DNA of 64,000 nt from Trichoplax sp. H2 (taxonomy: Eukaryota): contig NOWV01000018.1 in NCBI GenBank assembly GCA_003344405.1, positions 1 through 64,000 on the forward strand, read 5' to 3'. Numbering within the stretch: the first letter of the stretch is position 1; every line of letters begins with the position of its first letter. Shown piece after piece: positions 16,850 to 49,779 of the stretch. The notes beneath the pieces are model-generated. The model was not told where the DNA came from, made no database searches, and saw only the letters and a list, made by a program, of their open reading frames with translations. Both the position numbers and the translations under genes were made by a program.

Positions 16850-17905
16850 TACAGTACGTGCTGTTCCTCAACTGCTTCAGCGACAGTACACGCTGCAGAG
16901 AGATCCGTTTGATGAGAAAGAGCCCTGCAGATTATAGTTGACCACCCGGATTGCGGCGTGGGTCAAACCACTACGCAAGCGTGATAGAATGATGAAACCA
17001 CACATAGACTGTGTGTGAGGTAAAAAAGTTTCTTCATCAAACGAAAAAGTACAGTACAGCACAGTACAAACTACTGTAGCCAGTATAGTATACAGTACTA
17101 CAGTATACAGTACTGTACTGCGCAGTTTCTAGAAGACCTCTATGGTAGTACAGATAGACCGTAAAGGTATTGAACCGAACCGAACCTTTCTCAGGTCTAA
17201 ATTAGTACTGGTACAACTGTACTGTACTGTACACTCAGTGTACAGTACTGTACAGCTGCCAGCTGTACCGTCGCTATAGTCATATGTACGGTACAGTGTA
17301 CAGTACTGTACTGTACAGTGGTTGTTCGACAACGGCACATACTGTACACTGTACGTACAGTACGTTGCAGAGCTGGGTACAGTAGACTGACTACAGCACA
17401 GTAGGGTGACACGTTCACTCGCTCACTAACCAAACCTTCGACAGGTGTAACTGTAAGTACAGTCTTTACGGTACTGGATGATTCGAGCACGTGCTGCGTA
17501 CCACGCATACTATAGGCAGTACAGTACAGTATCGTACGATAAAAGCTGACGCTGTCTGGTCTTGCTGTGCGATGCAATCTTGCTCCATCAAACACTTGTA
17601 GTTCTGTACTGTCCGTCAGTAGGCCATATGAACAAGGTGATCCTGTTGCTGCGCAATCTTGCAATGTCCAGTACCGTTTTAAATAATGTACAGTACACTG
17701 TACTGTACGCTCGTGTGTAAAAACGACTGTACTGGGCGTAGCGGACCGAACCAGACCGGACTAGTCGGAAAAAGGACAGTACTAGACAGTACGCCGAACT
17801 CCTACTCTACTGGGCGTGGCGGACCGGACCGGACCAGACCGGACTAGTCGCAAAAAAAGGACTGGGACACAGGGTACAGTACTCAAGATAAACGGTACTG
17901 TACTC
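16850..17905. promoter_or_regulatory. ATP5F1A/HAX1 bidirectional promoter packed with CAGTA/TACTG palindromic units
   Basis: Divergent ATGs at 16779 (-) and 17985 (+). Dozens of cagta/tactg pentamers occur, e.g. 17049-17127, 17203-17400 and 17688-17735, and GC content is higher than in the flanks. Confidence 0.7.
17731..17865 (+). repeat. Two direct copies of a GC-rich ~50-55 bp element (ACTGGGCGTRGCGGACCG..CCAGACCGGACTAGTCG.AAAAAGGAC)
   Basis: Copies at about 17731-17777 and 17809-17862 differ by one extra GGACC pentamer, a few substitutions and A-run length. Confidence 0.85.
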
Positions 17906-17984: not shown

Positions 17985-19788
17985 ATGACGTTAATGGACG
18001 CTTTTCGATCATTCTTAGGGCTTGATGAACACAAATGGAATCCACAGTAAGTGATGCAGATCCATACAGCAAGCTAATTTCCTAACATACGTACCTCTGT
18101 AATTTTGACATCCATCGTATGTACAGTATGATGCAATGTTGAGATATTGATTTTTTGTAAAAGTCCCTCAATCAGTATCAGTCTTATTGTCTGACCATGA
18201 CTAAAATGAAATACGTAACTGATGATGCAGTATGTCGGTAGAAAATATTACAACTGATATCTTGATTGTATTCGTCATGTATTAATTAGAAAAGTTGGGA
18301 CACTGTACGCGTAAATCTGGATAAGTGATCAGTAGAATCAAATGACGATATTTTGCTATTGGTCAGTCATAGATTACAAGTATACATACGTCAATATTGT
18401 CTTAATAATCCACAGCTCAAAATGGCAGAACTGCATTTGCTTGAACTGTACAATGTTGTGTTTTGCTACTACTTCCCTAATACGACGTATTTCTAGAATT
18501 TATCTTGAACTTTGCAATTGGTTACCTGCGAATTGTAGCATGTTTTATAAAGAGCGAGCGAGCATTTTGAAAACATTTCCAATGATAAATTAAATTAAAA
18601 TTACTAGATACGCATACGCGTATGCTTGCTTTTCTTACATTTGCAATAAGCAATCAATACTGCTGTTGGTGTTGTTATACTGTACAGCATCAGCTAGACA
18701 CAATTTATAAAACGATCTGCCGTAATGACTACTTCATCAATTTTTATTTTTCTCTTTTTATACGTAGCGACATCAGGAATAGATTTGAAAATGAATTTAA
18801 CCAAAATTTGTCCACTCTTGAAGAAGAATTTGAAAACCAAATGCGAATGGCAGATGAAATGTTGAAAGGTTTATTTTCAAATCGATTCTCCTTCCAAAAC
18901 CCGATGGATGCTGAATCTGGTCAACCGGAGTCCTTCATTTTTTACGGTAAAGTAGATACAATGCATCTTGCATATCACAATTTAAATGGATTATGACTGT
19001 GGACCAACTCTGTGTAAGATGGTGCTACCTCAAAAATCGATTACATTTCAATAATATACTACTGTAGTTGCTGTATCATTTTCTAAATGCGTAATTATAT
19101 GAATGAGATATGTCTAAAACTCAATTGAGTAAACATAAATGTTTCAAATTTCGATATAGATGATGGCAATAATCAGCAAAACAATGGTAATTTAAGAGAT
19201 CACGTACTGAAACCTGAATCGAAAAATGATCGCCTGAGTGCATTACCACCACCAATTCAACAACATCCTCCTTCAGTAGATGGGAATGGAATATTCCCCA
19301 AAATATTTCGATTTAATCAGGAAAAGCAGGATATTGATTACGATGAAAGTGTACAAGACAATCGGCATTTATTAAAGGGTTTGATAGGCGATGAAAGTAA
19401 TGGTCCTACCGATCTAAATCGACAACCAAAATCTTGGTTTTCTTCCAACAGTATTTCCTTCTCTACAATTACTAAACCAGACGGTAGCTCTGAGACAAAG
19501 CGTGTTGAACGAAATTCTAATGGAGACGAAGAAATTACGGTAACTCAGTCTTTCGGAGATCAGTCCTATACATATAAGAAACGTATCAAGGCTGATGGAA
19601 GCTCAGAAATTAACGAAGATTTTGTTAATGTTGATCAAGACAAAATGAGTGAGATTCGATCAAAGTTTTTTCCGAAACATTTAAACCAAGGAAAATTAAA
19701 AGATTCGGTTATGAAAGAGAGTACTGACGATCGGACCTTTAAATCGATACTATTTCCGAAGCTTGTTGACAGATTGTTTGATGATTAA
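17985..19788 (+). CDS. HAX1: HCLS1-associated protein X-1, 3 exons, 289 aa
   Basis: Exons 17985-18046, 18768-18946 and 19160-19788 join in frame. Motifs MTLMDAFRSFLG, NLRDHVLK, QDIDYD and QPKSWFSSNSISFSTITKPDGSSETKRVERNSNGDEEITVT match HAX1. Confidence 0.88.
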
Positions 19789-21906: not shown

Positions 21907-24406
21907 ATGTCAGTAAACTACGCAGAAAATCTATCTCATTATCCAAACAAGGGTAAATGTGGCCAAGCCGAGGTAAGAAACCTGTTGATACTACAGTACT
22001 ACGTAGTAGGGATACAGCAAAAGACAGACTGACCAGTTCACGATTCATAGTATTACAAAGGTTTGAGACCTTAAAACTCACAGTCAGCGAATGAAAGTTA
22101 ATCTAGCAAAAATCAAAATGCTTCAACAGAGCTGGGAACTTGCTGTATTACTTATAGTTTATACGTTCTACTTTCAATCCACTACTTTTCCATAACTGTG
22201 CAACAACGCTAAACTACGCTCGATATTGTGCATTGATGTAATAAGTGCTTGCTGCCGCTTTCAAAGCTGTTAAAGATTAAGTAATTGTCATCACTTCATT
22301 GATATGCGATGCTGTTTACGTAATGTTATATTTATTACTAAAGTACAGCAGCTTTACTATTAACATAAGATATTGTTAACAGTACGAGTAAATATAGACT
22401 ATGTGTTTCAGATCTTGAAGGCTTAATACCCCCATCGAGTAAGCGATAATACCACTATGCTAAAAATTTCGATATTATCTGTTGTTCTCTTAGATATTTG
22501 ATTCCACCGAAGTACTACAAAGTAAAATTAAACAACTGGCAGAAATGATTAAAGCCAGCAAGTATATTGTAGTACATACTGGTGCAGGGATCAGCACCAG
22601 TGCTGGAATACCCGATTTTAGGTGAGTGATAATTAATAATACATATATTGGATAGCCTTTAGCTAACAACTGTAACTGTAATTGAACGAGTAATTTATTA
22701 TCACTAATCTTGTGGTAAATGCTGCCTTTTATTGACGAGTAGAGTAGGTTTATACGCGTAATGTTCTATTTTAAAATAAATAAATGATATTGTAACAAGT
22801 TCGATAATAATCGCCTTTTCTTGCACATTAAATTCTCTATCCAAAAACCCTGATTTAAAACATTCAGTCTGTAAGGTACAGTACAATTAAATTGGATTAG
22901 GTACAGTACTAGCAAAGAAACACTTGCAGTACAGTAAATCTAGAGAGCAGGTATCATTAGGCAACCAATTACTTCTATTGATCAATTTTAAACTGCTCCT
23001 CTCAGGGGCCCTCGAGGCGTATGGACATTAGAGGAAAAAGGCAAAAAACCGGAAATAAATATTACATTCGAAACTGCTCAACCTACTTTAACACATATGG
23101 CAGTAGTCGAACTAGCCAGAGCTGGCATTGTGAAATATGTAATTAGTCAGAACGTTGACGGTTTACATTGGAAATCTGGCCTCCCAAGGTAACATCTAAT
23201 GTGTTTAAATTATTTTATTTCACTACTGATTCATAACAAGTATCACTTGGCTAATACTTCAGTAAAAGAAATTGTGATTACTATAACTCGTAGTTAATAA
23301 CTATCACGATTCATTCTGTTATATGCGTATAGTGCAAACATGAAGTACCGGAAATTTAACTTACTATGTCATTCTTATTGCCCATAACAGAAACAAAGTA
23401 TCGGAACTCCATGGAAACATGTTTGTTGATAGATGTGATAGATGTTATCAAGAATACTGTCATGCTCATGCCTCAGTTACCGTTGGATGTAAGAAGACAG
23501 GCACAAGATGCACTCGTAACGATCGATGCAGGTAAATTTGCCTATCCACGATACACTGACATGTCGTAATTGTCATAATTGCACACTATCATTGTCTTTT
23601 TGGCTAAAATTGCCTAGCAGATCCGCTAAATGCTGATACATATCATCTAAAATCATCGTACATGATTTGTACCTTAATTCTTTTTATTTTTACAGAGGCT
23701 ATATAAGAGATACAATATTAGATTGGGAAGATTCTCTTCCAGAAAAAGACCTACTCTCAGCTGAAGATCATCTAAGGTGATATATCACGTAAACACAGCT
23801 CCGAGCCTTGCCTTTGTTGAAACCTTAGTTTTGTCATCTAAGTTTCACATAGAACGAAAGTTGTTCCGTTGCGATACCAAATGAATTATGTTCCTAGTCA
23901 ATTTCATTAACGTATTAAATATAATTCATGGCGTACTGTTTTTAGGCGATCTGATTTATCTTTGTGTTTGGGTACTTCACTCCAAATTAAACCGAGTGGA
24001 GACTTGCCTCTGCTAACGTTAAAGAACAACGGGTGCATAGCGATTTGTAATCTACAACCGACAAAATTGGTAAGGCTAACTACTATCAATATTTAAGAAT
24101 ACGTTTCTCTAATATATTAAATCTTGTAAACGAGACTTCTGAACATTTTTCTGAGCTTTTATATTTATAATAACATGTATTACTGGATAGGACAAAAAAG
24201 CGTCATTATGTATCCATGGCTATGTTGATCAAGTGATGATCGGTGTTATGGACGAATTGGGTTTACCGATACCAAAGTATTCACCAATGATAACAGAAAA
24301 TCTATTAAAAAGGAAATTCGATTGTATCAAGGAAGAGAGGCTCGTGGATGGAGAACCTGATAATAAAAAAGCTCTCACCAATCACAAGCGTCCGTCCGGA
24401 TGCTAA
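21907..24406 (+). CDS. SIRT6: NAD-dependent deacylase sirtuin-6, 7 exons, 312 aa
   Basis: Exons 21907-21972, 22494-22621, 23006-23188, 23391-23531, 23696-23776, 23946-24069 and 24191-24406. Motifs: [78 protein letters not shown]. Confidence 0.98.
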
Positions 24407-25939: not shown

Positions 25940-26070
25940 CGGGTCTACTGTACTGTACTATCTGGTTCAAGACTGCCCAAGAGCTGTGTCATACTGTACT
26001 GGACAGTACAGTAGTGTGCAGCGTACACAGGGTAATTTGGTCGGTCTGGCTACATGTCCGTACAACGTTC
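25940..26070. promoter_or_regulatory. CAGTA/TACTG cluster and GGTCGGTCTGG element upstream of RPP14
   Basis: ctactgtactgtacta, actgtactggacagtacagtagt and gggtaatttggtcggtctgg lie just 5' of RPP14. Confidence 0.55.
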
Positions 26071-27839
26071 TCCTTGATTCGTTCTTTTAGCAATCCAAAT
26101 AGCTTTCAATATTTTAATACTACATCTAAGTTGCAGTCTATCTCGATTTAGCGTAGCTAAAAATTTAAATCTGATGAAACTCATTACGATAGCAGAAATT
26201 TCTATTTTACCAATCGAGTTGCGATGAACAGATTTTAAAACTCTTAAATGGGCAATCTTCTAACTCAAAGTCTACATTTACTTTACCTTATATAGTGCTG
26301 TCCATTACTGTACAGTACATTGCTTTGCTCCATATAATTACTGGAAGTATTTCCAAAATATGCAACTACCGTAATTAGCTTGTAGTGTATGAGTTTTTAA
26401 CTCTAGATTCGCAATGCTACAACTCAAAATTCTGAGTTATTAAAACAGAGCAAATCTCTAATGTGCCACAAATAGTTAACATCGTATTATTAACTTTCAA
26501 AGTAACGTTTTTTTTAGGATATACTATCACAACAATTACTAACCTACCATAGCATCTTAGATCTCAAATATCCATGAACTGTTTCAATCCACTGTAAAAT
26601 TCATTACTTTCGAGCTCTTATTCTGAGTATAGATGCATTAATGACAATTGTATTTGTATTAATATCTGATAGCTTTATCCCTCCTCCCCTTTCCCCCAAA
26701 AATGGTTAGTTGACTTTAATATTGCGGGATAATTTTTTTATATATGCGTATATCAATCATATTATTTATATTTATGTATAATACTTGTGTTAACAATATT
26801 TCAATATTGAAAATGATATTTTATTATTCCACAGACAAGACAAAATTCAGCACTTGATCGGCGATAACTTACTGAATTTTGATGTAGAATTAGAGCAGTA
26901 ATAGCTTAGCAATAGTTTACAACATAATCAATCGTTTCTGCCAAGATTAGGCCTTCAATTGGCTATAAAATAACAAGAAAAGGTACAAAAGAGATGAAGT
27001 AGAACTGAAATATATCTATGCAGTAGCAACTACTGAGGTATAATACAACCCATGTATAACCTCAGAAAGGCCTGTTTTGATTGATATCAAACTATAACAA
27101 ATTTTCAAAGGAAAATGTGATCATTCATTATCGCCTGAATCAATTAATAATTGCAAGTTAATCATGAGAAAGATTGATAGATACGCAGTGTTAGAAACTA
27201 AAATAAACCCATATTTTTAACTTTGTATCTTTGATAGTAAATTATAGTTACCAATAACTATGCCACGGTAATATTGAAAGTGCAAGCCGATTCAATATGA
27301 TGAAATATTATAAGTCGTATAATAGCGTTGAATATTCAACTAACTTCTTACAGACATAATACCTTAAATACGATGTCAACAAGGAGCAAGATCAAGTCTT
27401 GCTAAACAAAATAATCTCCATTGCAAAGCAATTGCATGGATAAGTAAAACAGTTTGGTTAATGTAAGGAATTATGAATGCTGGACAAACTATAAATTTAT
27501 CGTTTCTAAAGATGGGAAACACATCCATCAACATTTAAATTTATAATACATTCGTATTTGCTAGCTCGGAGCTAGACAGCGAGTACAAATATCAGAAAAG
27601 ATGTAATTAATATCACCTTATAGCAATCTATACTTAGAACTTGTAATAAAAAATCATGATAGAGTAGAAACACAACATTCGATTTAAAAAAGAGGCTTTA
27701 AATACCGATACAAACAACTTAATTATTAATGCTTATTGAAAAGAAAGCAGAGTGCGACGAAACTCAGTTGCAAGATTGATCCCGAAAAGATGAAGTAAAT
27801 CTAGATATTTAGTATTTTTCGTTCCACTTCATTTCCCCT

Positions 27840-30545
27840 TCAAGGAATTCTATGAAGTATATCTGGCTCCGACATGCTATGCTTTTTAGTTGATTTAAAC
27901 GACCCAATCATACTACTCTGCTTGAAGTAAAAGGACAACTGATATCATTATTAATATTAATATTCTACCAAACAATCAAATTGCTATTTATATCTTAATA
28001 AAACTATAAGCTACTAGATTTTACATAAAAATGTAATAGGCGCAACTTAGAGGAATTCAACGGCTGATATGCTGTACAGTACATAGACTGCAGATGACGC
28101 TCTATTCCGATAAATTCACTAAACGATAGACTGCTTACAAGAAATTTACTAGAGAATAATATCATGGCAATTTATTTTAGCAGTCAAAAATAATTAACGC
28201 ACAATTTGATAGATAGAACTTTGTATAATATTAGGTAAGCTAAAAATATTTATAGAATTGATCAGTATACATAATTTACTTACGTTGTTTTGTAATGATT
28301 TCGCCATATCTACAAACTGTGGTCTTTGAGCGATATTATGCGACCAACACATGTTGATAATTTTCTGTTTATTGTGATTAAAAATAATAACAGGTAGTAT
28401 CAACTTAAGTATAACACTAAAAATTTCCTCATATTTATACATTTTTACTAAAATAAATATTGTTAAATATTTTGTATCTTTCTACCTTTAATTTTGGTGG
28501 ACAATTGATATGATTTAAACTCTGCTTACAACCATTTCCAATTTTCCATATAGTAACATCCTCTGGTTCGCCAGCAAATGGCCATTCAAATGCGACTAGT
28601 TCATAAAGTATAGTTCTACAATATATAAGAAAATTAAGAGTTAATATATATATGTATTCTGTAATATAAATTTATTGATATATTCGCTCGTATAAGTTCT
28701 AAGATAAAAATGATAGCGTAAAAGCCTTTACCCAAAAGCATACATATCGGAATAATATGTATAGGGCATGGACATGTTGAAATTCGGTGGATCAACAATC
28801 ATTGTTCTCATTAATTCAGGACTAATATATGTTAAATGGCCATGTGGAATAATACTGGTGTTTTCACTACGATAAGATGTGCCATTATAAGTGCTATAAT
28901 CTGTGATTGAAATTTTCACTTTTGATTCTAGAAAAATATTTCTAGAACACAATTTGGTATGAACGATTCCTTTGGCATGTAAATAACCCATTCCATGTGC
29001 AATCTGACGCGCAATTTGCAATTTAGTCTTCATCGATAATTTATCGTGGCGATGATGTGTGTGATGATATAATGAGTGTCCTTTACGCATGCTACAGTGA
29101 AAATAAGACATACTATATTACAATTTCAGAAGATTAAGAACGAGTATCGTAATTATATTTATGTAATTGCAACATCATGTTTTTAATCATTTTCTGACGT
29201 GATCTACTTGTATACTGTATACCGTAATTCCACTCAAATTGATTCGAAAAAATTCTTATCATTAATATGTACACATATTAATAATTATAACAAACGATGA
29301 ATACTAGAATGTCCATTTAATGTTTTACCTTGTAATAATTGCATAAAATGGGGGTTCGAAGCAAGCTCCCATAAATAAAGAGATATTGTCATGGCGAATC
29401 ATACTTAAAATAGATACTTCTTGCCATAAATCAGAAATTTCCTTCTTATTTAAATTCTCTCTTGTATGAATCATAACTTCTCCATGCCATCGGCCTCTGA
29501 TATCAGGTATTAGTCGCATTAGAAAAATATTAAATTACCCAAACGGATTACAACGTTATCATATGAATACGAAACTAACTTGTAGATGGAACCTTTATAA
29601 CCAGTTTTAAGTCGATCACCAAATTTTAGATCACAAAGAAGAACTAGCCATTCTTTTAAGGATTCCTGCAGCATTAAAAGGAAATAATTGTATTAAAAGG
29701 AAATCTTTTACCACGCTTAGTTGTTAATATAGCAGCAATGCTACATAATAAACGACATACGATGTATCATTAGCAAATTATTTAATTTTTAAAGAATGAA
29801 ATTTTCTTGTAACCTTAAGTTCTTCAAATTGATCGTCGAAAGCGTCCCCTGATACCAAGTGTAATCGTTCATAATTGTTATGGCCATTATAGGGAGGAGA
29901 TGAAACAGGAGTACCTAAGATTTAAAGCAATATTTTTCAACATCCAAGTTACAATCATCAGCTTTTAAGAATAGAATACAACACTCCTATCTTACCTTGA
30001 TAACTAAATTGAGTATTATCCATAGGGAAATGGTGACCAGCACTTTGAGGCCATGTACTTGTGATAGAATGGCGGCGCTCCGATGGCGCTGGTGACGGTG
30101 GCATTAGAAATTGTGATGAATGCATTGGTAATGTATTTGGTGATGTAACAAGGCCTGACAAGCTGTTAAAACTATCTGAGTAAAATGATGACGAATAAAT
30201 GGACGATGCTGATGAGGGTAACAGCGAATCTTCATCATTTGTATACGACGCTTGACTATGATATTGTACTGACTGCAAATCCGATTCATCGGCGGTACTG
30301 CCAAAGAAATTGGCATTTTTAACCCCTGGAGTGCAAATATTTGGATCGGAATGGCTATCACAATGCATTTCTAACCCAAATGTTGAAGTTTTGTCGCGAC
30401 ATAGCAAACTTTCATCCACGGTATGGCTTTGATTTAGTTCACTGAAATGACATGAGTTACTGAATCGATCTTGTTGTTTTCGTAGATCTTCAGGTTGTGT
30501 CGACAAAATAATATCCCTGCCGGTTGTTTGTATTGTTGTAGTCAT
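27840..30545 (-). CDS. KSR/RAF-family pseudokinase, KSR3-like, 8 exons, 518 aa from the first supported ATG
   Basis: Exons 30545-29996, 29914-29814, 29665-29580, 29496-29329, 29091-28732, 28615-28486, 28364-28284 and 27920-27840 join in frame. KSR signatures: GRWHGEV, IRHDNISLFMGAC..PP..AIITS, GMGYLHAKGIVH, YEL...WPF. Catalytic motifs are altered (VMIH, HTKL, DYS). An acceptor AG precedes the ATG, so upstream exons may exist. Confidence 0.9.
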
Positions 30546-31699
30546 ATCTATTAGATAATATAGACAAAATTAATTGTAAACCAACGGAAATAAATGAACA
30601 TAAACAATCATGGAGAGTAAGGGAGCATCCAATCAATCAAATATTTCATATCCCTAGGTATAAAACAAGACATGAAATGCTAAAAGAATTCTCTATTAAA
30701 CGTTATGAGGTTATTTCTTCTCGTTTTATACCAAGGTCAATTGATGAATATAAATAAATGGCACTAAATGGAGTATTGTAATGTTTATTTATGTAAAAGT
30801 AAAATTGAAAGAAATTACTATAAATTCAATTTCTATTTGCAAATAACAATTAAAATATTCTAGGACCTTGATAATCAAAATTCAACGGCACTCTCATGTC
30901 TATCAATTTCAATAATATTTAAAAATAAATACGGTAACTCAAACTATTTTACCCCATCAAGATTTAAAATATTTATATTAGTCTCTCCTAAAGGAAAACT
31001 GCAGTAGCTTTCGGAAATTGCTTTGATATTTAGAACCCAAAAAATAAAAGAAGTGCTACATTTTTAAGTCTAGTGTATAATATACATAAACACAGGAATT
31101 ATAGCAAGTCAAGAATTGAGATTTTTTGTGCTAAAAATCTTCATGAATATAAAAGTAAAATTAGCATTAAGAATTACTTATTTTACTATAATGATCTGAA
31201 AAAGTGAGTGTCGAATCTATGGTAAAGTACCCTATCCATTGATATTAATTATCTGACTTCCATCGTGGAGCGTTACCAGTCCAAAGGATATTCCTTTCAG
31301 GAATTACTAATGTCAATCATCTTGATGCATTAGATGGCCTAACTGTCACTAGTTATTTTAGTCTTCCGCTGAGATAAGAAGCTGACCAGATGGCAATTTC
31401 GGTGCAGTCTTTTACGTATAAAATATTAAAATTGTTTGAAAACTTTTTTCATCTAAAACAGATTCGCAGCGAATACCATTTAGGCTCATTTTGTTAGCTA
31501 GTGATAGTATTAGTTGATTACTACAGCTCAATGTTACAAATTTAAGTACACACTTTCACATGTTATCGCGATTGCTTCGCCTAAAGTTAGCCTTCATCCC
31601 TCGAAAATTCATATTACCATCTGTAAACATGTCAGATAAATTTCATAATAAAGCATACCGATACCTTTTCTTTCCTTTAAAGTACTGAAAACGTTCTTA

Positions 31700-32343
31700 G
31701 CTTTTTAACCAAAATACGCGTAAGTAATGATAGAATAAGCTCACTTAAAGTGCCATAAAGTAACAATTCCCATCACGAACGATCGTAATTTACCGAGAAG
31801 GTTTTTAAGATGGTATAGCCAAAAATGATAAAATAATACCTTATCTGTAATCCTTTAAAGGTTCTGCGAGTAGTTTGTTTTCCAACTTGGATATTTTTTG
31901 CATTATTATCAAAACAAATGGAAGTTCGATTATAATTAGGAAATACATTACGTGGCATCAAAGGACATCGACATAAGAGATCAATGTTGTGGGAAAAGAA
32001 AACATGACACGAAACAGACTGTTGATCTTCTAGTCAAGCATTCAATACATGAGATGATTTTCAAGGAAGATCTATCAAGAGGACTCTTAGATACATTTTT
32101 TATGCTGAACTTTCGATTTAAATCGTAATTATACGTTACTCCAAACATTGTTGACTATTACCATTAATTGTGAACGATCGCTTTCATAACGCTATCGGTA
32201 ACTTTTGAAGTTTATAATAATTGAAAAAGTGCTCATATTGATTATGACTTATCGCCTCTAATCGCAAATGAGGGTATAATAATTGTAAGTAATCAAAGAA
32301 AGTAGAATATGAGTTATTACTGTCTAGGTTGTAAAGATATGAA
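31700..32343 (-). pseudogene. Possible decayed LRR-GPCR (LGR-like) fragment
   Basis: In order: LRLEAISHNQYEHFFNYYKLQKL (LRR-like), FTINGN (TM1-like), LDRS, LTRRSTVCFVSCF, CPLMPRNVFPNYNRTSICF (ECL2-like) and YYFIIFGYTIL, with stops and frameshifts. Confidence 0.3.
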
Positions 32344-32855
32344 NNNNNNNNNNNNNNNNNNNNCTGTGTCATACTGTACTGGACAGTACAGTAGTGTACA
32401 GCGTATACAGGGTAATTTGGTCGGTCTGGCTACATGTCCGTATAACGTTCTCCTTGATTCGTTCTTTTAGCAATCCAAATAGCTTTCAATATTTTAATAC
32501 TATATCTAAGTTGCAGTCTATCTCGATTTAGCGTAGCTAAATAGCTTTCAATATTTTAATACTATATCTAAGTTGCAGTCTATCTCGATTTAGCGTAGCT
32601 AAAAATTTAAATCTGATGAAACTCATTGCGATAGCAGAAATTTCTATTTTACTAATCGAGTTGCGATGAACAGATTTTAAAACTCTTNNNNNNNNNNNNN
32701 NNNNNNNCGGTAACTTTTGAAGTTTATAATAATTGAAAAAGCGCTGATATTGATTATGACTTATCGCCTCTAATCGCAAATGACGGTATAATAATTGTAA
32801 GTAATCAAAGAAACTAGAATATGAGTTATTACTGTCTAGGTTGTAAAGATATGAA
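32196..32855. other. Assembly artefact: gap-bounded alternate copy of 25984-26245 flanked by a duplicated 148-bp segment
   Basis: N-runs at 32344-32363 and 32688-32707. The insert 32364-32687 matches 25984-26245 with a few SNPs plus a 62-bp tandem duplication (32477-32600). Segment 32196-32343 repeats at 32708-32855 with about four SNPs. Confidence 0.85.
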
Positions 32856-33689
32856 TGTAAAATATAAGATTAAAAAAATAATTGATTGGTACAACGGTAG
32901 TCTCCGATACACTAGATAGTCGCAAAGAAAAAGTAGCATTTAACCTGAATAAATGCAATGGGTTTTTACTCATGTCGAACAAGTTCTGATAATTATAATG
33001 ATTACATTGTGCAAGACAATTTTATCCGTTAAGAATAGTAAAAATCTGAAAATACAACATACAACAAAGAGGATGTGATACCTTCCTGAAATCAATGATT
33101 CAACATCCTAAGTATTGTCGCAGATCAATCCAATTTTTATGGCAAACGGTACTTATCAAGGCTTTAAAACGCCAGACTCGAATTAATTAGTACTTACTTT
33201 TCCAGAACAGTTATTCAATAAATGTTTTAGCTAATTTTTCTTGTCACCCAAGCAAAAAATTTAAAATTCAATCTCTACTTCATCCTTCAATACATAACTC
33301 GAATAGGAGGACATTTAAACAATAAATGATACGTAGGTGGAATTAGAAAGAGACCATGACAAAAAGATGCTGGAGGAAACTTCCAATAATATCATAATAA
33401 CGGGCGACAGTTATACTAACAATAAAAGGACGTTTGTTTGTGGCTCACTAACTAATTTGATATCCTGCTATTAATTCATTCCATCATTTAAGTGAGCAAG
33501 AGTTTGTTGATAAAAGTGCACCATGCCTTAGTTTGTTTTTATGCATTTTAATGACTACACTTAATCGATCAAGAAATAAAAGAAAATGACTCCGATATAG
33601 AAAAAAACCTACGCATTGGTAGCTGTGGCGTATCATAAATTAGAATGAATCAGGTCAAATTTTTTCCTTTGAATTCGCTTTTCTACAGC

Positions 33690-34600
33690 GGCTTCAAGAC
33701 CCTAAACATATCTATATTCGCTCTATCTCTAGCCATAGTGTTATCGTACGCTATTACAAAATTTATCGTAGGCAGTAGGCATGAGATTATCATTATTAAA
33801 GATATGGAGGTGGCATAGCTGGCGTATATTGACTCTTAAATAAATATCATTACCACTGCATCATTTTTCAATACCTTAATCACTTGCTATCAATCTATTC
33901 TCTATCAATACGGCATCAATTAATGTGTCTCTTTAAATTAAAATATATAGTTAGAACTATCAATTGTATTAATTAGTGATCCTTTTGTTTTCATCTAATG
34001 AACAAGGAATAGACGTTGTTGATCGCTGTACAAAAGTAATGTAGTCCGCTATTTGGGGTAAAGGGCCAAAGTGGCGAGCCATAATAGACGGCTTGTCTCA
34101 TTACTAAACAATATAATTAAATAAGACAGGAAAACTGTGTCGCTTACAATAAAAATCTTCAATTTGTGCTGTGTTTCTTCTTTTATAGTATTTTAAATAG
34201 AAAAAGTAAATATAAGCTCAAAAATACCCGAATGGAATTATTTTCTATAACAACGATCAGCCAAGACTGGCCAAGATAGAAATATAAAGTAATAATGCAA
34301 GGAAATGGTCAAAGGTAGTCTACTTGGGACACTTGAATAATTGTAGTAAGAAGCGATAGTAATCATAATAAATCCAAGCCATCACAATTCAAAATATTCC
34401 TTGAAATTATGATTTTTAAGTCAATACGTGTAAACTATTAATGTTATCGTGACTTGATATAGATTTTATAGCAAATACCAGCCGATATATCCAGTCATAA
34501 ATCTGATGCTTATTATTGATGAGGATGACACTATCGATCATAACAAGTTCGGAACCTCCAAATATCCATTACATCCATAATTTTAGGTCAATTCATTAGA
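33690..34600 (-). pseudogene. Possible decayed class A GPCR fragment(s)
   Basis: WIFG (34568), IVMAWIY (34388), LLWLATLALYP (~34085), PCSLD (~34005) and SYATSISLIMIISCLLPTINFVIAY (33820-33745) resemble ECL1, TM4, ECL2 and TM5. Confidence 0.35.
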
Positions 34601-36037
34601 AACTGATCAAAATAAGGTTAATATAACCCTGATTTCAACTGATTGGTGATTAATGATCTATGATCTAGACATTATAGGTTACTAATAATAATATACAATC
34701 TAAAGTTGATGTTAAAGAGTGTAATATCGAATATTACAATCTACGAATAATACTTCTTATCCTATCAATTTTAAGCAAGATGTCTACATGTAGTCAATGC
34801 AGAAAGGCTTGTTTGATCATTATATTATCCTGTAATATCATGCTAGTGATATCTACTTTTCAATCCGATATTTAGGTATTTAAATAAGTAATAAAGTCGA
34901 TCATAATCTATAAGCAAACATAACACAATATTAGCTTTCTCAAGTAGTATTGCTAAATGTCTTGTACAGTATATTGTGACCAAAGGAATACCAGAACTAA
35001 TTCTTATAATTGCAAGTGGTCTACAGTACAGACTCCTAAGATTTTAATAATGATAATTAATTCCTAAATTGTGCAGTCTAAAAAGGAAGTAAATAATATA
35101 CGATTTTAAAAATTACTAGTACTGATTGAGTGCTATAATATTACATCAAAGACTATTCCAGCGTAATATATGTATCTTCTTGAAATAACTTTCATTTAGA
35201 CCATTTCTTATAAAACCTAACGATTGCCTGAACAAGATTCGGTAAATAAATCTATTTTTCTGTTCTTAATAGACAACTACCAACTCAGTATTGATATTGG
35301 CAAGCTTTTAAAAGTCACAAGTATTCCATAAAAGTAGAAAGTAAATTGTAAACTTCTAATTTGCTTGAAAATAATAAATACATTTTATCAAATTGACTAC
35401 ATGTCTCTTTCTTAAAGCACGTGATTGCTTAATACTACTACTTGATTGAAGTAGATAATTTCCTATCTGATATTTTGATGACAAAATGAATACGGTATTC
35501 AATCACTTTGTTACACTTCTTGCTAGGTATATAACAATATACGAGATGATCCATCCCCATAAATCTGTATAAAATCATTATTATTGCTTATGTACAGATA
35601 TAGACTGGACCGGAGTAAATTACGACATATAGAATCACTTTTTCTTTTACATTAAAAATTGAACACAGGATGCCATTAAAAGCTACTCTAACCATTTGCT
35701 TTAGGTAGTATAATGAGACTTCAGGTGTCGATATTAGAGTATTGCCAATAGGTTATTTTTTACACTTGATAAAATTTTAGTATACTTAATTTAGACATCA
35801 CAAATCATAAATCATTATCATTATTAAGAGACATAAAATTATAATCGAAAATAAGCCCATAATTATTGCTTATCTAACAATTATCCCTGAATAATAACTA
35901 CTTTAATGTATATAAAATAATTGCTAATTATACTGTAAGTATTACTGAATAGGTTTATGGATAAAAATATACCGTATAAAATTTATAGAATGTACCACAT
36001 TAATTTTCTCCTCACTTGCAACTTAATATTTTTTATC

Positions 36038-36200
36038 AAACCAAAGAAAATAGACTATCAAGTAGCGTAATGCAGAATAAAATAGACAGCAATTATAATA
36101 TACTTTGTCAAATTTCTTCTTATGTTTTAGTACTTTCCATCCAAATCAAAGAAAATAAACTATTACCGTAATGCAAAATAAAACAAATATCAACTTAATA
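36038..36200 (+). repeat. Diverged ~60-bp direct repeat pair
   Basis: aaaccaaagaaaatagactat..cgtaatgcagaataaaa (36038) versus aaatcaaagaaaataaactat..cgtaatgcaaaataaaa (36143). Confidence 0.7.
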
Positions 36201-38329
36201 GTTGGGCAATTTTTTATGCTTGAATAAGTGTTATAATTATCGCCATCATCGTAATAAATATCTTGATGATTATGTCGCGTAGGATGTGAATAGACTCAAT
36301 AGACTTTACCGAGAAGATATATTGCATTAGTCAATAGAAGAGATTAGCTTCAAATTTAAATTCATGCATGCAGGCATTGTAGTTAAATAATAATTAGCAT
36401 TAAGGCTGATTTTAATACTTATAGATAGACATAAATATAAATTAATCGTCCATGATTGATTAATGATTATGTTATGAAACTAGAAATGATCGTATATTTA
36501 CTATTAATAATTCGAAACAAAAATCCATTCAAAATGTAATGATTATTCCGTCATGTACTATAATTGTATAAATAAATAATTATTGCCACACGTAAGTTAG
36601 TAGTGGGAAGTTCCTTCTATAGCATAACTTTATATGAGAGCAACCCATCTGTTCCAATTATCTATTCCTTTCTGTTTGTAAACAAATTTTTGATAAAAAT
36701 CTGATATATATGAGACCTTCACGAGATCTGAGAACAAATTTTTAAACATCGTGCTAACATCACGTTGGTCTTAAAAAGTTATCAGAAAAAAGCGGCTTGA
36801 CTAATACATGAAATTATCACATACGTGTACAAGTTATATTAATTATTGTTGACTCCAAATTTTCTAATCAGGGCCATAAATCATAGTGAATTTACAGAAA
36901 ATGCTTAATATAGCTGTAGATATCAAAATACGGTAGTCAATTTGGTATCATAGAAATTGTATAAACCTTTCTCTTTACTATTCTTTCATGTCTGCATTTG
37001 AAAGAGATAGATAATTATAAGTAAATATTAGAGCCGAAATGTCCTATTTTAATCTTAAAAATTGCATAATTGACTGAAATCTAGTGTATCATATTTCGAA
37101 AAAATGATTGCTAATAGCCTATAAAATTACTGTACAAGTAAATCTGCATTGAGCCATTATTATGTTGAAATTGTAGCAATCGTTTCTCCATGGTATTTAT
37201 ATAAATGTTGTAGAGATTTAAATAATCCGACTATTCTATGAAATAGCTACTATTTCTATATTAGCTGTCCTGTCACTCAATCGCGACTAATGGGCAGTTT
37301 GCAAAATGACCGATTTCGCATACGGTCACGTTCATATATACTATACGAATTTGCTTTTTAGTTGTTCATATCAATATCATTAATTTAATTCTTATTGAAA
37401 TCTTTTCGTATTTAGAAGTAACTGCAATCTAATCGTGGTTAATTCTACCAATACTTCAGTCCTGCACTATATTCCTCATATACACACAGTATGATAGGCA
37501 AATAAAGTTTTAATACTGTGCTGCTGGGTATAAAATATAAGCATATACAATAAAGATAATAGCTAAAATTAATTATTGGGTGTATACGCATATCTTCATT
37601 TATTATTAACTAAGACACTATAGTTGCTTTAAAATTTTTAAAAGAAATAAAAGCATAATCTTAGATTGATCATTAAATTAATCTTAACTCATGCAGTCTG
37701 ATCTACACAATCTTTGCAAAGCGTGCAGAAGTAACGGATATATTATGTTTCTCCAAGGAATCGCTTACTACTTACTAGCTAGTACTGTAATTAAGATTAA
37801 ATATAATTTAAAGAATTTTTATTACTGAAAATTTTCATATTCTGTTGTAGAAGGCAAAGACTTTTATTCTAATTTATAATAGTATATTATCGATTATATA
37901 CCGATGTGAAATAGTGTGTTAGCGTATTGAACTGATTTTAACAAATGCGAAAATAACTAGATAAAAATTTAACTTTTACTAAATCTCTCCTTATTTTTAC
38001 AACGTGATACTGGAAAATTATTAATCTTTATAGATACATGATTATGATTAAATGCAGTTCATTGATTAAGTGAGAGTCTTACTGCAGTAGTATTGGGTAT
38101 ATAGTAATAATAGAAACATAATTGAAGTGTCTTATTTGTTAAATAAGAAATATACTAAGCTAATATTGGATATAGCAAGGGATTACCAAAAATGAAACTT
38201 TCATTCTTAAAGTCAAATCTTTAGTAGCTCTAATAATGGGATGTAATGATTAAGAGCGGCTTACTGAACAAATGAGGACCCTACTAAACTTAATTTATAC
38301 ATTTAAGGTACAGTACACTAAGAATACGA

Positions 38330-38720
38330 TCATGATTAAAATAATGTACTGATAAAAGAGAACTTTCTATACTAAATTTGAAAGCCCAGGATATAAAAAG
38401 GGCACAATCACTATTGAAGCAGTTCAATAATAAAATGAGAATCTTGCTATAAGAAATTAAGTATTATCTTTCAACAATATATGGCGGTAGACCATCAAAG
38501 GAAAGAATTATACCAGTATATTGAATTTCATAACCCTCGGCATACTATCCACTAATTAATGAAGTAAGGAACTGAAACTGAGAATTCTTGTGGGTAGGAA
38601 AGTATAATTGTGAACGTGAACTATACGATTCATTGTGAGTCTAAGGATATGGTGCAGACGATATTTTTGTTACCGGTAATTTCTCCTGACAACCATTAGA
38701 CAATATTCTTTCAATCAATA
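38330..38720 (-). pseudogene. Possible decayed GPCR fragment (TM1-TM4)
   Basis: ITGNKNIVCTI (TM1 GN-like), NYTFL and IVIVPFLYPG in broken frames. Confidence 0.22.
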
Positions 38721-40099
38721 TTTTCGCCGTATATAAACGTATTTAATTAAGATTACCTAATTACCGCACTTGTAAGTCAGACCTATTAAAATTGCGCTTT
38801 TATCTTGGATACAGGATAATAAACTAAATAATTTGCTATGAAATCTAGTCATATACTAATATAACCCTACGATAATGGCAGCAGTGTGAGATTGATTTTA
38901 GCTTGTTTGCAAATAACATTTCTACGTGCCAATTGACGTAAATCATGATAGTCAATCATTTATAATTGAATAATTCTAGTATATTACGATATCTTGGTGT
39001 GTCAGTTTAGCTACAAGATTAAGTAAACGCATTAAGTACGATCTATGGGTCTATTAAGCATGACATTAGAAGACAGTGGCATCAATCTAACTTGGTTGGG
39101 CTATACGATGCAAAGGATAATATAATATCGTGACTTTAATTTCGAAATGAGGTTTAGGAGCCCCAAATAGACATTAGAAATATCTGTCTTCTATTTTCCC
39201 TTATTGTACATACTCGTATACACTTAGACAATGCTGACAATAATAATAATTTGATCAAAGTCACCTACCCACAAACAACAATCAACTATATTATCGAAAT
39301 CAATTTATAACATCAAGCGAAATCGTGCATGAATAATAAATTAAACTTCATATCATGTTCATGGTACCTTGAATAATAAATCTGTAGCTTATTTTTGTAC
39401 AGCACGTATGATACTATTCCATAAGGTTGTATAATACTACCTTTTGTAATATCTATCATTATATTGTCACTTCTAAATGTCATTTCGGACTGAATTAATT
39501 GCATATTCCTTTCTACTTTGAAGTCATATAGGTACTTCTGTCCTCACTGTCATTTTGCATTTCTATAATATTACGGATGTCTTAATAAAAGTTGCCTAGA
39601 ATCTTTACTATTCACAATGGATATCCTGTTTTCTAAAGTTACGGGCATATCCTTATGATTTACTTGGCAATAATTCTTTACAATCGACACAAAATAGACG
39701 ACGGAAATGTCGATCATTTATTACGGTACCATATCGAAAAAGGCTAGATTGCTGTAGCCTATACTGATTGAATATTGTTGATGATTGTCTATATCAAAAA
39801 TAGGTATCCAAACGCGTAAATTAAAGATTGTATCGTTGAAAGAAAAAAATAGAATTAATTCTTTTCTCTTTCATTTTACCTTACAGCATGACAGTAAAAC
39901 ATAGCCAACAGGGCCATCTTATTCTACAACGATATACCCATTCTACATTCTAGCCTAAGAAATAGCAACTATGGTTCACCATCCCTTTATTTTGTCAGGC
40001 CCAGTGGTAAATTAATTGTGTTCTATTTCTTGAAAATAGTTCAATGTCATTAATAAAGAAGTACCAATTTTAGTAAACAAACTGCCATGAGGCGCTAAA

Positions 40100-40570
40100 T
40101 ACTGCACGCGAGAAAATCTGATTTTCGATTATATCTATTTCTTTTGCTAAATATACTCGTAATATATGGTATAGAATAATAACATGAAGCATAAGTACAC
40201 GAAAGATTCTGATTTCTAATTCTTGATCGCATTCATATCTTTTACGAAATGTGCTCATAACATACATTTAATTTACCGTGTATAACATTCTAATACAAAT
40301 CACTAAATACAGCAAAGATTCTGATTTTCAGTTCTTGATTCTGTCAATTGTTTTTACATCATATTCTTATAACTTATAGAACAATCGAATATAAACCACT
40401 ATACGCACGAAAGATTCTTATTTTTTGTTCTTAGTTTTATCGATTGCTTTTACAAAATGTGCTCATAATTTACGATATATGGCAGTCTGATATACTAACT
40501 ATATACACGAAAAATTCTGGTTTTCGATTCCTGATTCTATCGATTTTCTGTAAAAATATACCGTACTTAT
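40100..40570 (+). repeat. Degenerate ~100-bp tandem array, about 5 units
   Basis: Core cacgaaagattctgatttt..ttct.gat...ttttac.aaatgtgctcataa recurs at about 40104, 40197, 40310, 40405 and 40506. Confidence 0.8.
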
Positions 40571-42241
40571 AACCGTCTAAATTATAACATAAGAGCATTT
40601 TCCTATATTAATTTTAATCTTGAAAATTCTAGACTAGTGCACGTATCTAGCTGATATTTCTACTTCATGCCGATAAAAGTGTACGAAGTGAGAGTGCTCG
40701 TTATAGTTGATATTAAAATACGAAAAATACGTATAGAGTATGAGCTCCTGACTTCGAGATTTAGAGGATATTTATTTACTATCTGTATTATATACCGTAA
40801 AGAACTATCTATGGCCGGATCGATATTTTTAACATGAGTGTTTTTTGCCATTAACTTTCCAATCGATATCAATCTTAGTCGATATTTTAAAGTGATATCG
40901 ATATACAATTCATAATTTTATGAGCATGTTTAGATATTTTATCTTAATAGCAGTCTTGATAAACTAGTTTTTTAAGTCAATTTATAATCATCTTTATATT
41001 TACATTATGCTAGATTGACCCTTTAAACCTGCATCTGTTTTGGAATTAATTTTAAGCCTCTTTATACAGTAGATATTTTCAAATTTTATATCGATCTTAA
41101 CAGGCTCTCTAATCCTGTATTCATTGATGTTTGAATTGATTTAGTTTAAGGTCTCATTGATGGCTATATTAGTATTTCCTATTCATATAGCCCAGAACGA
41201 ATTTATTGTGTTATAATATTTCAATATTTTAACTTAAGGTACTTCAAATTCCTTCGTAGATTTTTTTTCAAACGGAAAGTTGTAGCCATCTTGACAAGCT
41301 TTCTAATGGAATTTCAATAAAATTTTAAAGTTTCTTTCTACTTGCTTTCATGCTACTACCCATTTCTTAGTCCATATTCTATGAAATCGACTATAGGGCC
41401 CACTATTATTCAGTTATTTGTTACGCCATAATGAATTTAAATGATAACTAGTACCGATAATAGATTCTTTTCGTACTTATCATTGTAGAAATATTGTATA
41501 ACAGAAAAATTTCATTATCCTATTTTAGCATAGCAGAAATTCATTGACTTACCTTTGATGACACTACTAAAAAATGGAATTTTCTCACATTCAGTGGACA
41601 TGCATTCAGAACATTTTCGATGATATTTTTTCCTGTTTACATTTGATTGAAAATGTCAGGGAGATAGCATTACTTCAAAGTGCATGTAATTAGTTACCCC
41701 TCATAACTTATTAATAACGAAGAAATAGAATAAGCTAAAAATAAATGAAAATTTTCTTAATTTCATACATAATTATTACAGTGATTAAATCGTAGGCATT
41801 CGATACGGTGATACAATCAAACACACCAACATGAACAGAACGAGTATAAATTATATAGTCTGCGGCTTCATTAGTTTATACTCGATCAACAATAACGGTA
41901 TCAGCATTGCAAATCTTAATATTTGTTTACAAGCAGATCTACACTTAAGGCCTACAGCAAATTTTAGATCACTTGATGGATCAATTCTTTCCGTTATCCA
42001 TTAATAAAATAACGTGAAAAGGATACAAATTATATCGGTGAGTCTAGTTTATTGTTGTCTAAGCAAATAGGACTGATATAATGAGCTTTTAAACTTCTTT
42101 TAATGAAGCTTACGATAGATCGTGGCAAGGGTAAAGGAGTTAAATTTCTACTGACTCATCTAACTCTACAGTGGGTTCAAATAGTTCTATCCAATTATTT
42201 CATATTGGTGCTTTGGTTAACTAGTTCCTTCAATTAGCACA

Positions 42242-44200: not shown

Positions 44201-45439
44201 TAAGGGAACAACATTCTCAATACAATGTACAAGTTAGGAATATTCCTGGCCTATAATTAATAATGCACTATAACTTGACCACATACCCTACAAATATTGC
44301 TAAGTATCTTGTAGTATGGACGAAAAAGTTCTAATTGAATTTGTTCAATTTCACCTTTGAGATGATTTAGTAATCTCATTCAATAATTCCTGCGAAATTC
44401 TGATAAATTGCTTTTGATAAATTAATGCTTTATTAACTCTTCTACCGAAAAAGCCCCTTTTCTATTGATTAATACTAATTTGTTCTAATTTAGAGCAAGT
44501 TATTTTTCTATTTAACCCAGTTTAAATGTATTACGTTTAAATTATTCTTTAGTACAATAAGTTAATTAATTTCAAATTAATATAAGCAGATTTTTAAGGT
44601 TTAGCTATCTAATTTAAATATGTACAAGCGGACGAAATGGAAGATCCATTCCATTTTACAAATTAATTAATGCTAAATCTAAATAGCCAATAAGACTCTT
44701 GTCTCATACTATGAAACTGGTTTAAACAGGATAGTGAAGGATAGGTCAAATTATCCCGCAAAATTTTTCCTATCTTAGGTTGTAAACCGGGGTAGCTTTT
44801 CTTAACGACTACATTAATTGTAGGTGTCAAAATCGTCAGCGAATAATTAGTATAAGATTTTATTCCTAATACTAATTGAAATGACTAACAAGATTTCATT
44901 TTCAAGGCATGAAATCGATTAAATCAAAGTGTAAAAGGTAATCAAAATAAGAAAATAAATCTTCTATTTCAAATCGGAAATCAAATTGAAGATTTAGATT
45001 CATTGCCTGGATAAAATTGTAAATAAATCATTTTAAACTAGCCTGTTTATCCTCACTAAAATACCGCAATGGTCATAAATGGTTAAATTAAAAGATACGG
45101 TAATTAAGTTGCAAAAAAATTAGATCATTTAAGCTTAGGGATATTGAATTGTCCTCACCTGCAAGATTTGCAGCGTAACCCAAGAAAAAGGATAGCTTTG
45201 TGACAACTATCACAGCGTTGATTGCATAAAATCTTCCTTGTATAGCTAAAGTAAACAAGATGAGATTAATATTGAATGAAAGAGCTAATATGAAACATGA
45301 TAATATAATAAAGTACGACAGCATATTCGATTTTTAAACAGCATACTGGCGCTAATCATTTAAAATTCAATATCAAAATCAATGGCGCCATATCTAGTTT
45401 GAATCTAGAAGTTATCATTTAAATTTCTACTTGGTCACT

Positions 45440-45640: not shown

Positions 45641-47299
45641 AGATAATATTAGAGACTCATGGCCCATTAGGTTGAATGTTTTGTCTTAGCTTTTCATGGG
45701 TGCCACAGTCGTTCAGAAAAGAATAATGAAGATATTGCTTATGATCGACATTTTAATTTGTTTGAAGTTTACTATCCTAAACCCAGGGCCAAAGATTGCT
45801 TTTATCTTAGCTTACTTGACTGAGTTATAGATTCAAAGGTGTCATCATAAACAAACGACTATAAAATTGGATATCTTTAATCTTAGACCGTATGAATGTG
45901 ACTATCATAACTGCTAAAGAAGAAAAACATGATGATCTTCATTTCTTGAAGTAATATTTTAAAATATTACGGTAATTATATCGCCATAATGCGAATTTTA
46001 GTTTGTGTGAACGTTATTTAGAAAACACCACTCTGCTATATCATGAGTTGGAAGTTTTACTTTATTTTATGGGAAAATTAAACATTGAAGGAAAAGAATG
46101 GAAAGACTGTTCTATAAAAGAATGATTCCATATTATTTCGTACGGTTAAAGAATTAGCTTGAAGCCGTCCATAGAATAGCATCCAAATGGGTATTCTTGT
46201 TTTATTTTATGCTGCCATTTTGGTCAAAGAAAAATGAGTATATTGCTTTAAAAGTAGATATTCTGATATCAGAAAGTGAATAACGGGTAATAAAAAATCC
46301 CTGCATATCAATTCTATTATGGATTTATTGTACAATTCTAGAATGGGTTAATACTTAGGGGTGAACTAGTTACTCTTCTATTGATTAACTAAGTTGGCAA
46401 GGTCTGTATCAAGTGGCAAGCGGTCCTCTTTTTTGGCTTGGATAGTCAATATGAATTAATGTACGAGTACAGTCATGGCTGGAAAAAGAAACTATCTCGT
46501 GACTATAAATATAGCCGTTTCCGCCTAGAGATATATAAATCAGGTATAGACTATTTGTTCATTAAGCATTGATACGATGTACTGTGTTAGTATTGAAGTA
46601 GATATTTTTGTAGCCTTCTTTTCGTATTGAAAAGAGGCGGCAAACCTTGAAGCCACCGCTTACGCAATCAATGATTTGATGTGAATGATTTTAGAAAATA
46701 AGCCATCAAATGTACCTTTTAATAGCCATTTTAATCCTTTATTAAGTTGGAATTGGTTATTTCTACCCTATAGAAAGGACCTATTAAACTTATACTTTCT
46801 TTAACTCTATTTATTAATTATCAATCTTCTCTAAATTCAATCTTTAAGTTTATGCTTGTAACTAAGACAAGTGCTATGAGTAAATTAATTAAGTTTACCT
46901 TAGTCGAGAGATCAATTGTTCCTACTAGGGCAACTGATCTTTCATATTACTGTAATGTCGTAATTGTCCATCTGACATCAACATCCAAGAACTATTGATT
47001 TAGTTGTATAATACAATTCCTACTATTGATTCGTATATTTTATACAGTAGTAAAATACATTGCAGCTAAGAGCGATTGAAATAGTTAACAATTTGATATT
47101 AGTTTTACATAGAAGGTAGCAATTTGGTCATTGATCCATTTATACAATCGACAATAGATTGATTCTTACTTAGCTAAAATGGATACCAGTCTATTAAGTC
47201 ACCAATAGATGCATTTTTCTCTCCTTGAGAACTGTCTATACTGTAGTATTGAACTGAACTAACGCTAGAAAATAATATTTTTACCTTTAATAATGCCGT

Positions 47300-49180: not shown

Positions 49181-49779
49181 AGACGTCTTACGATATCGTG
49201 AATCTTCAATAAAAGCTAAATCAGATAGCTTTAATTTTGAAGTAGCGACAAGGGAAAAAATAGGAAACTGCTTTCAATAATATTGAGTTGAGTATGAGAA
49301 GATCACTAAATGTGTATTATTCACAGTTATTGGGAATGGACTTTTTTTATGCAGATTAATCCATCATCAATTAGATTTATCCTACATCTAAAATGAATCA
49401 AATAGATTTCCAGCCAAGACTACTGTAGTAGCACCGTATCCCTTGACTGGAGAGAGCCTATACCCAATCTGTCGATTGATTTTATTTTTAAGTCAGAGTA
49501 TGGCGCATAGTATATAGAACAATCAATAATTATTGGCGATTAGAGTAACAAGGAAGATCCAGATAAAAAAAATAATGGAAAGATAGAAAATTGAATTTTG
49601 TTAAAATTTTGTTCATTTTATAACTAGTTTATATCATAGTGGGAACTGAGCTTCGAGTTAAGATCTTTTAATTTACCTATGCTGGCGTTTCATCATGTTT
49701 AGATCAAATTGAAGCAATCTGAGTCATGAACCAATTAAATATTCACCCAATAATACCTCGATTCACCTTGGCAGCGAGC

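Follow-up and report, generated by a model that had tools for sequence, protein, structure and literature searches.

Does the minus-strand gene whose 3′ two-thirds lie at positions 27840-30545 of the first 64,000 nucleotides of contig NOWV01000018.1 (Trichoplax sp. H2, assembly GCA_003344405.1), the stretch analysed here as a whole and referred to as the window, encode a member of KSR3, a family of dead kinases that switch on RAF? An earlier note, made from the letters of the window, had read 518 residues from an ATG at 30545 to a stop codon at 27840 and had proposed such a protein. Chessel et al. 2023 (PMC10322840) defined KSR3 as an allosteric activator of RAF that is kinase-dead, lacks CC-SAM and bears a C1 domain. 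For its sea urchin, hemichordate and cnidarian members, the activation of ERK is described there as independent of RAS and as dependent on RAF, on dimerisation, on the N-terminal acidic (NtA) motif, on 14-3-3 and on C1, and the tested members are described as non-catalytic. The gene in the window is most probably the Trichoplax member of this family, a catalytically dead RAF/KSR-type pseudokinase composed of a C1 domain, a Ser-rich linker and a kinase domain, which would activate RAF by pairing with it.

The 518 residues are encoded by eight exons joined at GT..AG boundaries (exons 4 to 11 in Table 1, the first of them read from the ATG at 30545), and all the motifs quoted in the earlier note (KTGYKG, VMIH, MIRH, HTK, DYS, an acidic stretch before a Trp, RRHSITSTWP and KHSMSEPDIL) are present in this reading. 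The complete model comprises 11 exons at 27840-49696, a gene span of at least 21.9 kb, with a coding sequence (CDS) of 1746 nt and a product of 581 residues, and has GT..AG ends at all ten introns. It adds 63 N-terminal residues, including the C1 domain, which are encoded at 41.6, 45.2 and 49.7 kb; the ATG at 30545 is the internal Met64 of this product. The three small C1-coding exons are separated by introns of 4.4 and 3.5 kb, and a further 11 kb precede the rest of the gene.

The gene is expressed as spliced RNA. Junctions were examined in contigs from four public runs (X4-X7) placed on positions 27650-47649, and all ten junctions of the 11-exon model are joined by contigs, the first exon being reached in three of the four runs. 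Within the eight-exon part, every junction is seen as a contig joint with CT..AC ends, five of them in all four runs and junction 28364/28486 in three. Two acceptors, 3 nt from each other, serve the last intron, with joint 27917/28284 in three of the four runs and joint 27920/28284 in two, and the choice between them gives a product with or without Gln556, just before the C-terminal tail. The upstream joints 30547/41553, which skips 11005 nt, and 41632/45159 each occur in all four runs. The gene predicted at 27840-30545 is therefore real, with every junction in contigs and with exon 8 alone matching Pfam PK_Tyr_Ser-Thr at E 3.1e-16.

The upstream exons were located by three routes. A tblastn comparison of the first 26 database matches with the window gave weak, repeated C1 matches at 45158-45262 on the same strand, and 41553-41632 was found by a Cys/His pattern search. 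The first exon came from the contigs of X4, X5 and X6, which continue past 45248 with one common sequence whose sole exact match in the window is 49677-49696 (0 expected by chance), with a GT donor next to it. The genome has a stop in the same frame 11 codons before the ATG at 49696; of the sequence 5′ of this ATG, the 30 listed letters of the contig consensus confirm only 13 nt. Prediction of the first exon by rule (ATG to His, followed by a GT donor) gave three candidates, none of which was correct; the RNA contigs gave the true exon.

Table 1. Features of the window, with residues numbered in the 581-residue product and joints seen in contigs of runs X4-X7
Feature	Positions	Strand	Content and evidence
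Exon 1, coding part	49677..49696	-	ATG at 49696 plus 6 2/3 codons, including C1 ligand H6; GT donor at 49676; 5′ untranslated region extends upstream
Exon 2	45159..45245	-	First half of C1, CxxC pairs C18/C21 and C32/C35; tblastn with C1 N-termini of 6 KSR-like proteins; AG acceptor, GT donor; joint in 4 of 4 runs
Exon 3	41553..41632	-	Second half of C1 (H40, C43, C51) and linker start; both joints in 4 of 4 runs
Exon 4	29996..30547	-	Ser-rich linker, RRHS(223)ITS(226)TWP candidate phospho-site; in frame with upstream exons; no Pfam family
Exon 5	29814..29914	-	Linker end and acidic stretch ahead of kinase domain; joints in 4 of 4 runs
Exon 6	29580..29665	-	NtA-type motif with Trp286; degenerate Gly loop K300-T-G-Y-K-G305
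Exon 7	29329..29496	-	Beta3 (H319 for Lys), R321, short beta3-alphaC link, W333, E335, interface S340-M-I-R343; Pfam kinase match; joints in 4 of 4 runs
Exon 8	28732..29091	-	H409-T-K411 catalytic loop without Asp, K422-V423, D429-Y-S431 for DFG, activation segment, S-P-E for APE
Exon 9	28486..28615	-	Kinase-domain C-lobe; contig joints
Exon 10	28284..28364	-	Kinase-domain end; weak Pfam match to profile end; joint 28364/28486 in 3 of 4 runs
Exon 11	27840..27920	-	C-terminal tail, 14-3-3-type site S570-M-S572-E-P, stop codon; two acceptors
Possible alternative first coding exon	46716..46729	-	ATG plus 4 2/3 codons, in frame with exon 2, GT donor; weak: one X5 contig, short side 28 letters
Cyclin C-terminal domain	5650-5889	+	Pfam on open reading frame (ORF)
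Tetraspanin	7286-8270	-	Pfam on ORF
Mitochondrial-type ATP synthase alpha, at least 10 exons	13562-16257	-	Pfam on ORFs
MLF1IP-like protein	19129-19785	+	Pfam on ORF
Sir2-family exon	22992-23189	+	Pfam on ORF

The C1 domain occupies residues 6-51 and retains all eight Zn ligands (H6, C18, C21, C32, C35, H40, C43 and C51). On a profile made exclusively from 19 Pfam-verified KSR1/2 C1 domains, it reaches 34.8 bits (positions 3-50 of 55); the two C1 half-exons, given to Pfam separately, do not reach C1_1. The product begins five residues ahead of C1, which leaves no room for a RAS-binding domain (RBD) before it. The N-terminal 200 residues of each of 27 KSR1/2 proteins with CC-SAM, compared with the window, gave four scattered matches at chance level (E 0.16-0.65), all on the opposite strand. 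A Pfam scan of 134 of the 162 window ORFs of at least 55 residues found no SAM_KSR1, no RBD and nothing inside the long introns, the other 28 ORFs lying over KSR3 exons (10) or in repeats or across other ORFs (18). The proline-rich N-terminal region and CC-SAM are thus absent from the gene, as they are from KSR3. For the linker, a search with exon 4 returned 1019 candidates, none at E ≤0.001.

These results bear on several claims of the earlier note. Its statement that the recovered protein has neither an RBD nor CC-SAM stands, and its statement that the 518 residues contain no C1 is literally true of those residues; the protein itself has a C1 domain, encoded further upstream in exons that RNA contigs link to the rest. 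Upstream exons, for which it had proposed to look, proved to encode C1, and the comparison with the window gave no CC-SAM exons. It had also held that upstream C1 exons would speak against KSR3, and this was mistaken, since published KSR3 proteins carry an N-terminal C1, which is reported as required for the activity of the sea urchin protein (PMC10322840). The C1 upstream instead completes the case for membership of KSR3.

The kinase domain, which is split over six exons, was compared position by position with aligned KSR3-like (44), KSR1/2 (30) and RAF (3) rows. All four catalytic motifs are degenerate: K300 replaces the first loop Gly and H319 the beta3 Lys, HRD reads H409-T-K411, and DFG reads D429-Y-S431. 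The domain is predicted from these states to be unable to catalyse phosphotransfer. The DFG Asp (D429), the catalytic-loop Asn (N416) and the alphaC Glu (E335) are retained, which would be expected if the kinase were active through unconventional catalytic residues. Replacement of the beta3 Lys by His, of the catalytic Asp by Lys and of the first loop Gly by Lys, together with the published description of tested family members as non-catalytic, makes an active enzyme extremely improbable.

At the positions that discriminate between the families, this predicted dead kinase carries KSR3-typical residues. H319, K411, I342, W333, K422 and V423 are each the commonest KSR3-like state, which no or almost no KSR1/2 and RAF rows share. 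The spacing from beta3 to the alphaC Glu, given as 16 residues in the earlier note and confirmed in the residue table, is the KSR3-like mode (24 of 44 rows), against 18 in RAF (3 of 3) and a mode of 19 in KSR1/2. Arg343 of the dimer interface S340-M-I-R343 is invariant across the rows. R321 stands at the position of BRAF L485, where Arg occurs in only 10 of the 44 KSR3-like rows (Phe in 19, Tyr in 12); W333 stands at that of BRAF K499, and K422-V423 lie in beta7-beta8. All of these positions (R321, W333, S340-M-I-R343 and K422-V423) are among those described as necessary in PMC10322840. The C-terminal S570-M-S572-E-P lies 10 residues from the end of the protein; of the 44 KSR3-like rows, 29 have an S.SEP string in their last 45 residues, as against none of the 30 KSR1/2 rows.

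Database searches placed the gene in the same family. An exon 8 query returned 26 proteins among 54 candidates, with KSR-like matches down to E 4e-31; the best were KSR3-type proteins, including those of Limulus, a tick, Hydra, Saccoglossus and Lytechinus, and insect KSR2 with SAM_KSR1 ranked lower. Searched exhaustively, 1.84 billion representatives yielded 1903 matches at E ≤0.001, with identity of at most 53% over the exon and about 48% over the kinase domain. Among 108 fetched proteins, Pfam separated 33 with SAM_KSR1 and/or SAM_KSR1_N and strong kinase scores from a shorter class with at most an N-terminal C1, and found an RBD in none. The group labels derive from Pfam architecture and a few source names and do not use the accessions of PMC10322840, and RAF was represented by three kinase-domain fragments only, recognised from their motifs.

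A maximum-likelihood tree of 82 rows places the window sequence together with the 44 KSR3-like rows on one side of a branch whose Shimodaira-Hasegawa-like approximate likelihood ratio test (SH-aLRT) support is 100; the 30 SAM-bearing KSR1/2 rows (support 98) and the three RAF rows (95) both lie apart from the window sequence. The latter branches after a seven-row group that includes Hydra and Rhopilema and before the other 37 KSR3-like rows, with a support of only 82-87. Profiles from which the window sequence had been left out score it at 418.4 bits for KSR3, 295.3 for KSR1/2 and 193.4 for RAF, so that KSR3 exceeds KSR1/2 by 123 bits. The kinase-domain phylogeny called for in the earlier note thus puts the gene on the KSR3 side, and tree, profile scores and residue table agree with its proposal of a dead RAF-family pseudokinase of KSR3 type.

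Several observations weigh against this assignment or against parts of it. The tree came from a quick search, the window sequence has a long end branch in it (0.97), and no starred small set includes the window sequence. Of the runs that supplied the contigs, X7 is a recorded RNA run and X4-X6 are RNA by a tool's guess only. The beta3-alphaC link is shorter than that of BRAF by two residues and not by the three given in PMC10322840 for most KSR3. The NtA motif reads K284-E285-W286 and has one acidic residue; its Lys takes the place of Ser in sea urchin and of Asp in Saccoglossus, and its K-E pair is not the S-E or D-E pair mutated in PMC10322840. Lys is also found at this position in 10 of the 44 KSR3-like rows, and six acidic residues fall within the 13 before Trp286. 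The candidate linker site has no Pro at +2. Finally, holding the window sequence with KSR1/2 lowered the log-likelihood by 37.26, and an approximately unbiased (AU) test did not reject that grouping (p-AU 0.0785).

The AU result is compatible with an alternative in which the gene encodes a RAS-dependent scaffold of KSR1/2 type that has secondarily lost CC-SAM and its catalytic residues and mainly holds MEK for RAF, with no constitutive activation. KSR1/2 (CC-SAM, Pro-rich region, C1, Ser/Thr-rich region and pseudokinase) and KSR3 are sister clades that share C1, the interface Arg, a Trp before the kinase domain and dependence on dimerisation with RAF-family partners, and the best match of exon 8 among solved structures is a chain named KSR (84.1 bits; B-raf 64.7). 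KSR1/2 proteins nevertheless have CC-SAM, longer beta3-alphaC links, HKD, DFG and, mostly, the beta3 Lys. Against this alternative stand the position of the window sequence inside the KSR3-like side of the branch with support 100, its higher KSR3 profile score, and three KSR3 states at positions where the 30 KSR1/2 rows uniformly have a different residue (Ile at the T508 position, replacement of the HRD Asp and replacement of the DFG Phe), to which the C-terminal S.SEP string may be added. A separate T. adhaerens KSR1 is moreover listed in PMC10322840, beside a T. adhaerens KSR3 and RAF. A KSR1/2-type scaffold is thus quite unlikely.

Could the gene instead encode a pseudokinase that is in decay or has been re-purposed and plays no part in RAF activation, for instance a relic paralogue that drifted after duplication? 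The long end branch, the lack of any protein of more than 57% identity to the window protein among the fetched representatives, the linker with no detectable relative and the degeneracy of all four catalytic motifs would fit such a history. It is opposed by an intact frame over 11 exons with canonical splice sites, by spliced contigs in all four runs and by the differences between run contigs and window (at least nine in all), since eight of the nine listed coding differences are synonymous (probability of at least eight 0.0002 if 27% of changes are silent). The features of non-catalytic transactivation are also retained, namely Arg343, Glu335, Trp286, the C1 ligands and the C-terminal site, and decay or re-purposing of this kind is very unlikely.

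Membership of KSR3, the preferred reading, brings the window protein close to the KSR3 proteins of Paracentrotus lividus, Saccoglossus and Nematostella described in PMC10322840. All have C1 a few residues from the start and no CC-SAM or RBD; a degenerate Gly loop, beta3 Lys, HRD and DFG; a short beta3-alphaC link; Arg at the BRAF L485 position and Trp or Leu at that of K499; an S-x-I-R interface and K-V in beta7-beta8; and a C-terminal H-S-x-S-E-P site. Sea urchin KSR3, for which the Lytechinus protein P0015 served as stand-in, differs from it in having S-E as its NtA pair and a link of 15 residues (16 in the window protein), and the window protein keeps the DFG Asp, in DYS; identity to P0015 is about 44% over the kinase domain.

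The control of sea urchin KSR3 offers a further comparison. The earlier note had described KSR3 proteins as controlled transcriptionally, an account which is incomplete, as the sea urchin protein is also reported to be held off by N-terminal phosphorylation (Ser84/Ser87) and to need PP2A (PMC10322840). The linker of the window protein contains a candidate phospho-site, R-R-H-S223-I-T-S226; the Lytechinus protein has a look-alike RRH..S..S string near residue 100, which does not coincide with its residues 85/88.

For the window protein we infer RAF binding, control by 14-3-3 and independence from RAS. In the mechanism proposed, the dead kinase domain would take an active-like shape through its short beta3-alphaC link, the Arg at the L485 position, the Trp at the K499 position and the lack of a DFG motif. 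It would then form a side-to-side pair with the RAF of the same organism, using the interface around Arg343, and 14-3-3 bound to phosphorylated Ser572 in the C-terminal tail would hold the pair, RAF being switched on allosterically and without RAS. The C1 domain would probably give contact with membrane or lipid, and the RRHS site of the linker is a candidate inhibitory phospho-site. A similar arrangement is described in PMC10322840 for kinase-impaired oncogenic BRAF mutants (such as D594G and beta3-alphaC deletions), in which a dead or weak protomer with a short link and altered P-loop and DFG activates a partner RAF via the dimer interface. Those mutants are somatic, RBD-bearing and RAS-regulated, whereas the window holds a natural gene without an RBD. 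RAF itself differs in having an RBD and the catalytic Lys and Asp that are replaced here.

Minor 5′ forms were also seen. The possible alternative first coding exon (Table 1) would replace the first seven residues and drop the C1 ligand H6. A second minor joint, 30547/33082, is found in one contig of one run with a short side of 27-28 letters, and its source exon contains in-frame stops, leaving Met64 as the start. It is conceivable, though unlikely, that the N-terminus of a constitutive RAF activator depends on which 5′ exon is used, the main transcript giving a full C1 and the two minor ones a C1 without its first His and a C1-less form of 518 residues, and that promoter choice thereby tunes RAS-independent ERK signalling in placozoan cell types. 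If this were true, the short forms without an intact C1 could be inactive or interfering, because the C1 cysteines are needed for the activity of sea urchin KSR3.

The 11-kb intron contains further features. A dispersed repeat at 25984-26245 and 32196-32855, with copies 97-98% identical, has one copy about 1.6 kb past the 3′ end of the CDS and a tandem pair inside this intron, where two runs of 20 N (32344-32363 and 32688-32707) coincide with the pair. Low-depth unspliced contigs cover much of the intron at 36100-41550 (for example 38428-40747 in X5), and the ORFs of that interval contain no Pfam domain. At 37292-37342, loose contig ends that continue differently pile up in each of the four runs, a pattern like that at the border of a repeated element.

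The surroundings of the gene confirm the placozoan origin that the earlier note had thought probable. An ungapped per-position count over 449 of 453 residues gave 99.8% identity between the neighbouring gene for ATP synthase alpha (13.5-16.3 kb) and T. adhaerens ATP5A1, against 87.1% for Nematostella, which assigns the window to Trichoplax or a very close sibling of it. A search with an ATP5A exon, in which 8000 matches were scored, was not discriminating by itself: among the 120 listed, Trichoplax, Nematostella and Sphingomonas were all at about 89%. Between this gene and the MLF1IP-like protein, positions 17129-17760 are GC-richer (0.43 against about 0.31 elsewhere) and have long open frames on both strands with repetitive TVQY/CTVQ-like units; this looks like a low-complexity repeat and not a gene.

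The T. adhaerens KSR3 listed in PMC10322840, XP_002110813.1, comes from the same species or a sibling strain and bears the same family name. It is probably the window gene, and a literature search for the accession found it in PMC10322840 alone. The exon searches returned no Trichoplax KSR3 protein, and among the database search returns no protein of at least 210 residues contains exon 8 and none of at least 322 contains exon 4. The listed model may for this reason be short, lack exons 4 or 8, or lie elsewhere in the genome. Public annotation of the locus may likewise be incomplete, because no matching full-length protein came from large protein collections.

As Chessel et al. 2023 (PMC10322840) define KSR3 and report a Trichoplax member, the finding of the earlier note is correct but already known, its evolutionary inference is in print, and the picture of ERK-pathway evolution is unchanged. 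The main addition is a corrected, longer and transcript-supported gene model of full length, where an ab initio model begun at the internal ATG misses C1. This model provides R343, S572, C18/C21 and S223/S226 as candidate functional residues for mutation in the Trichoplax protein.

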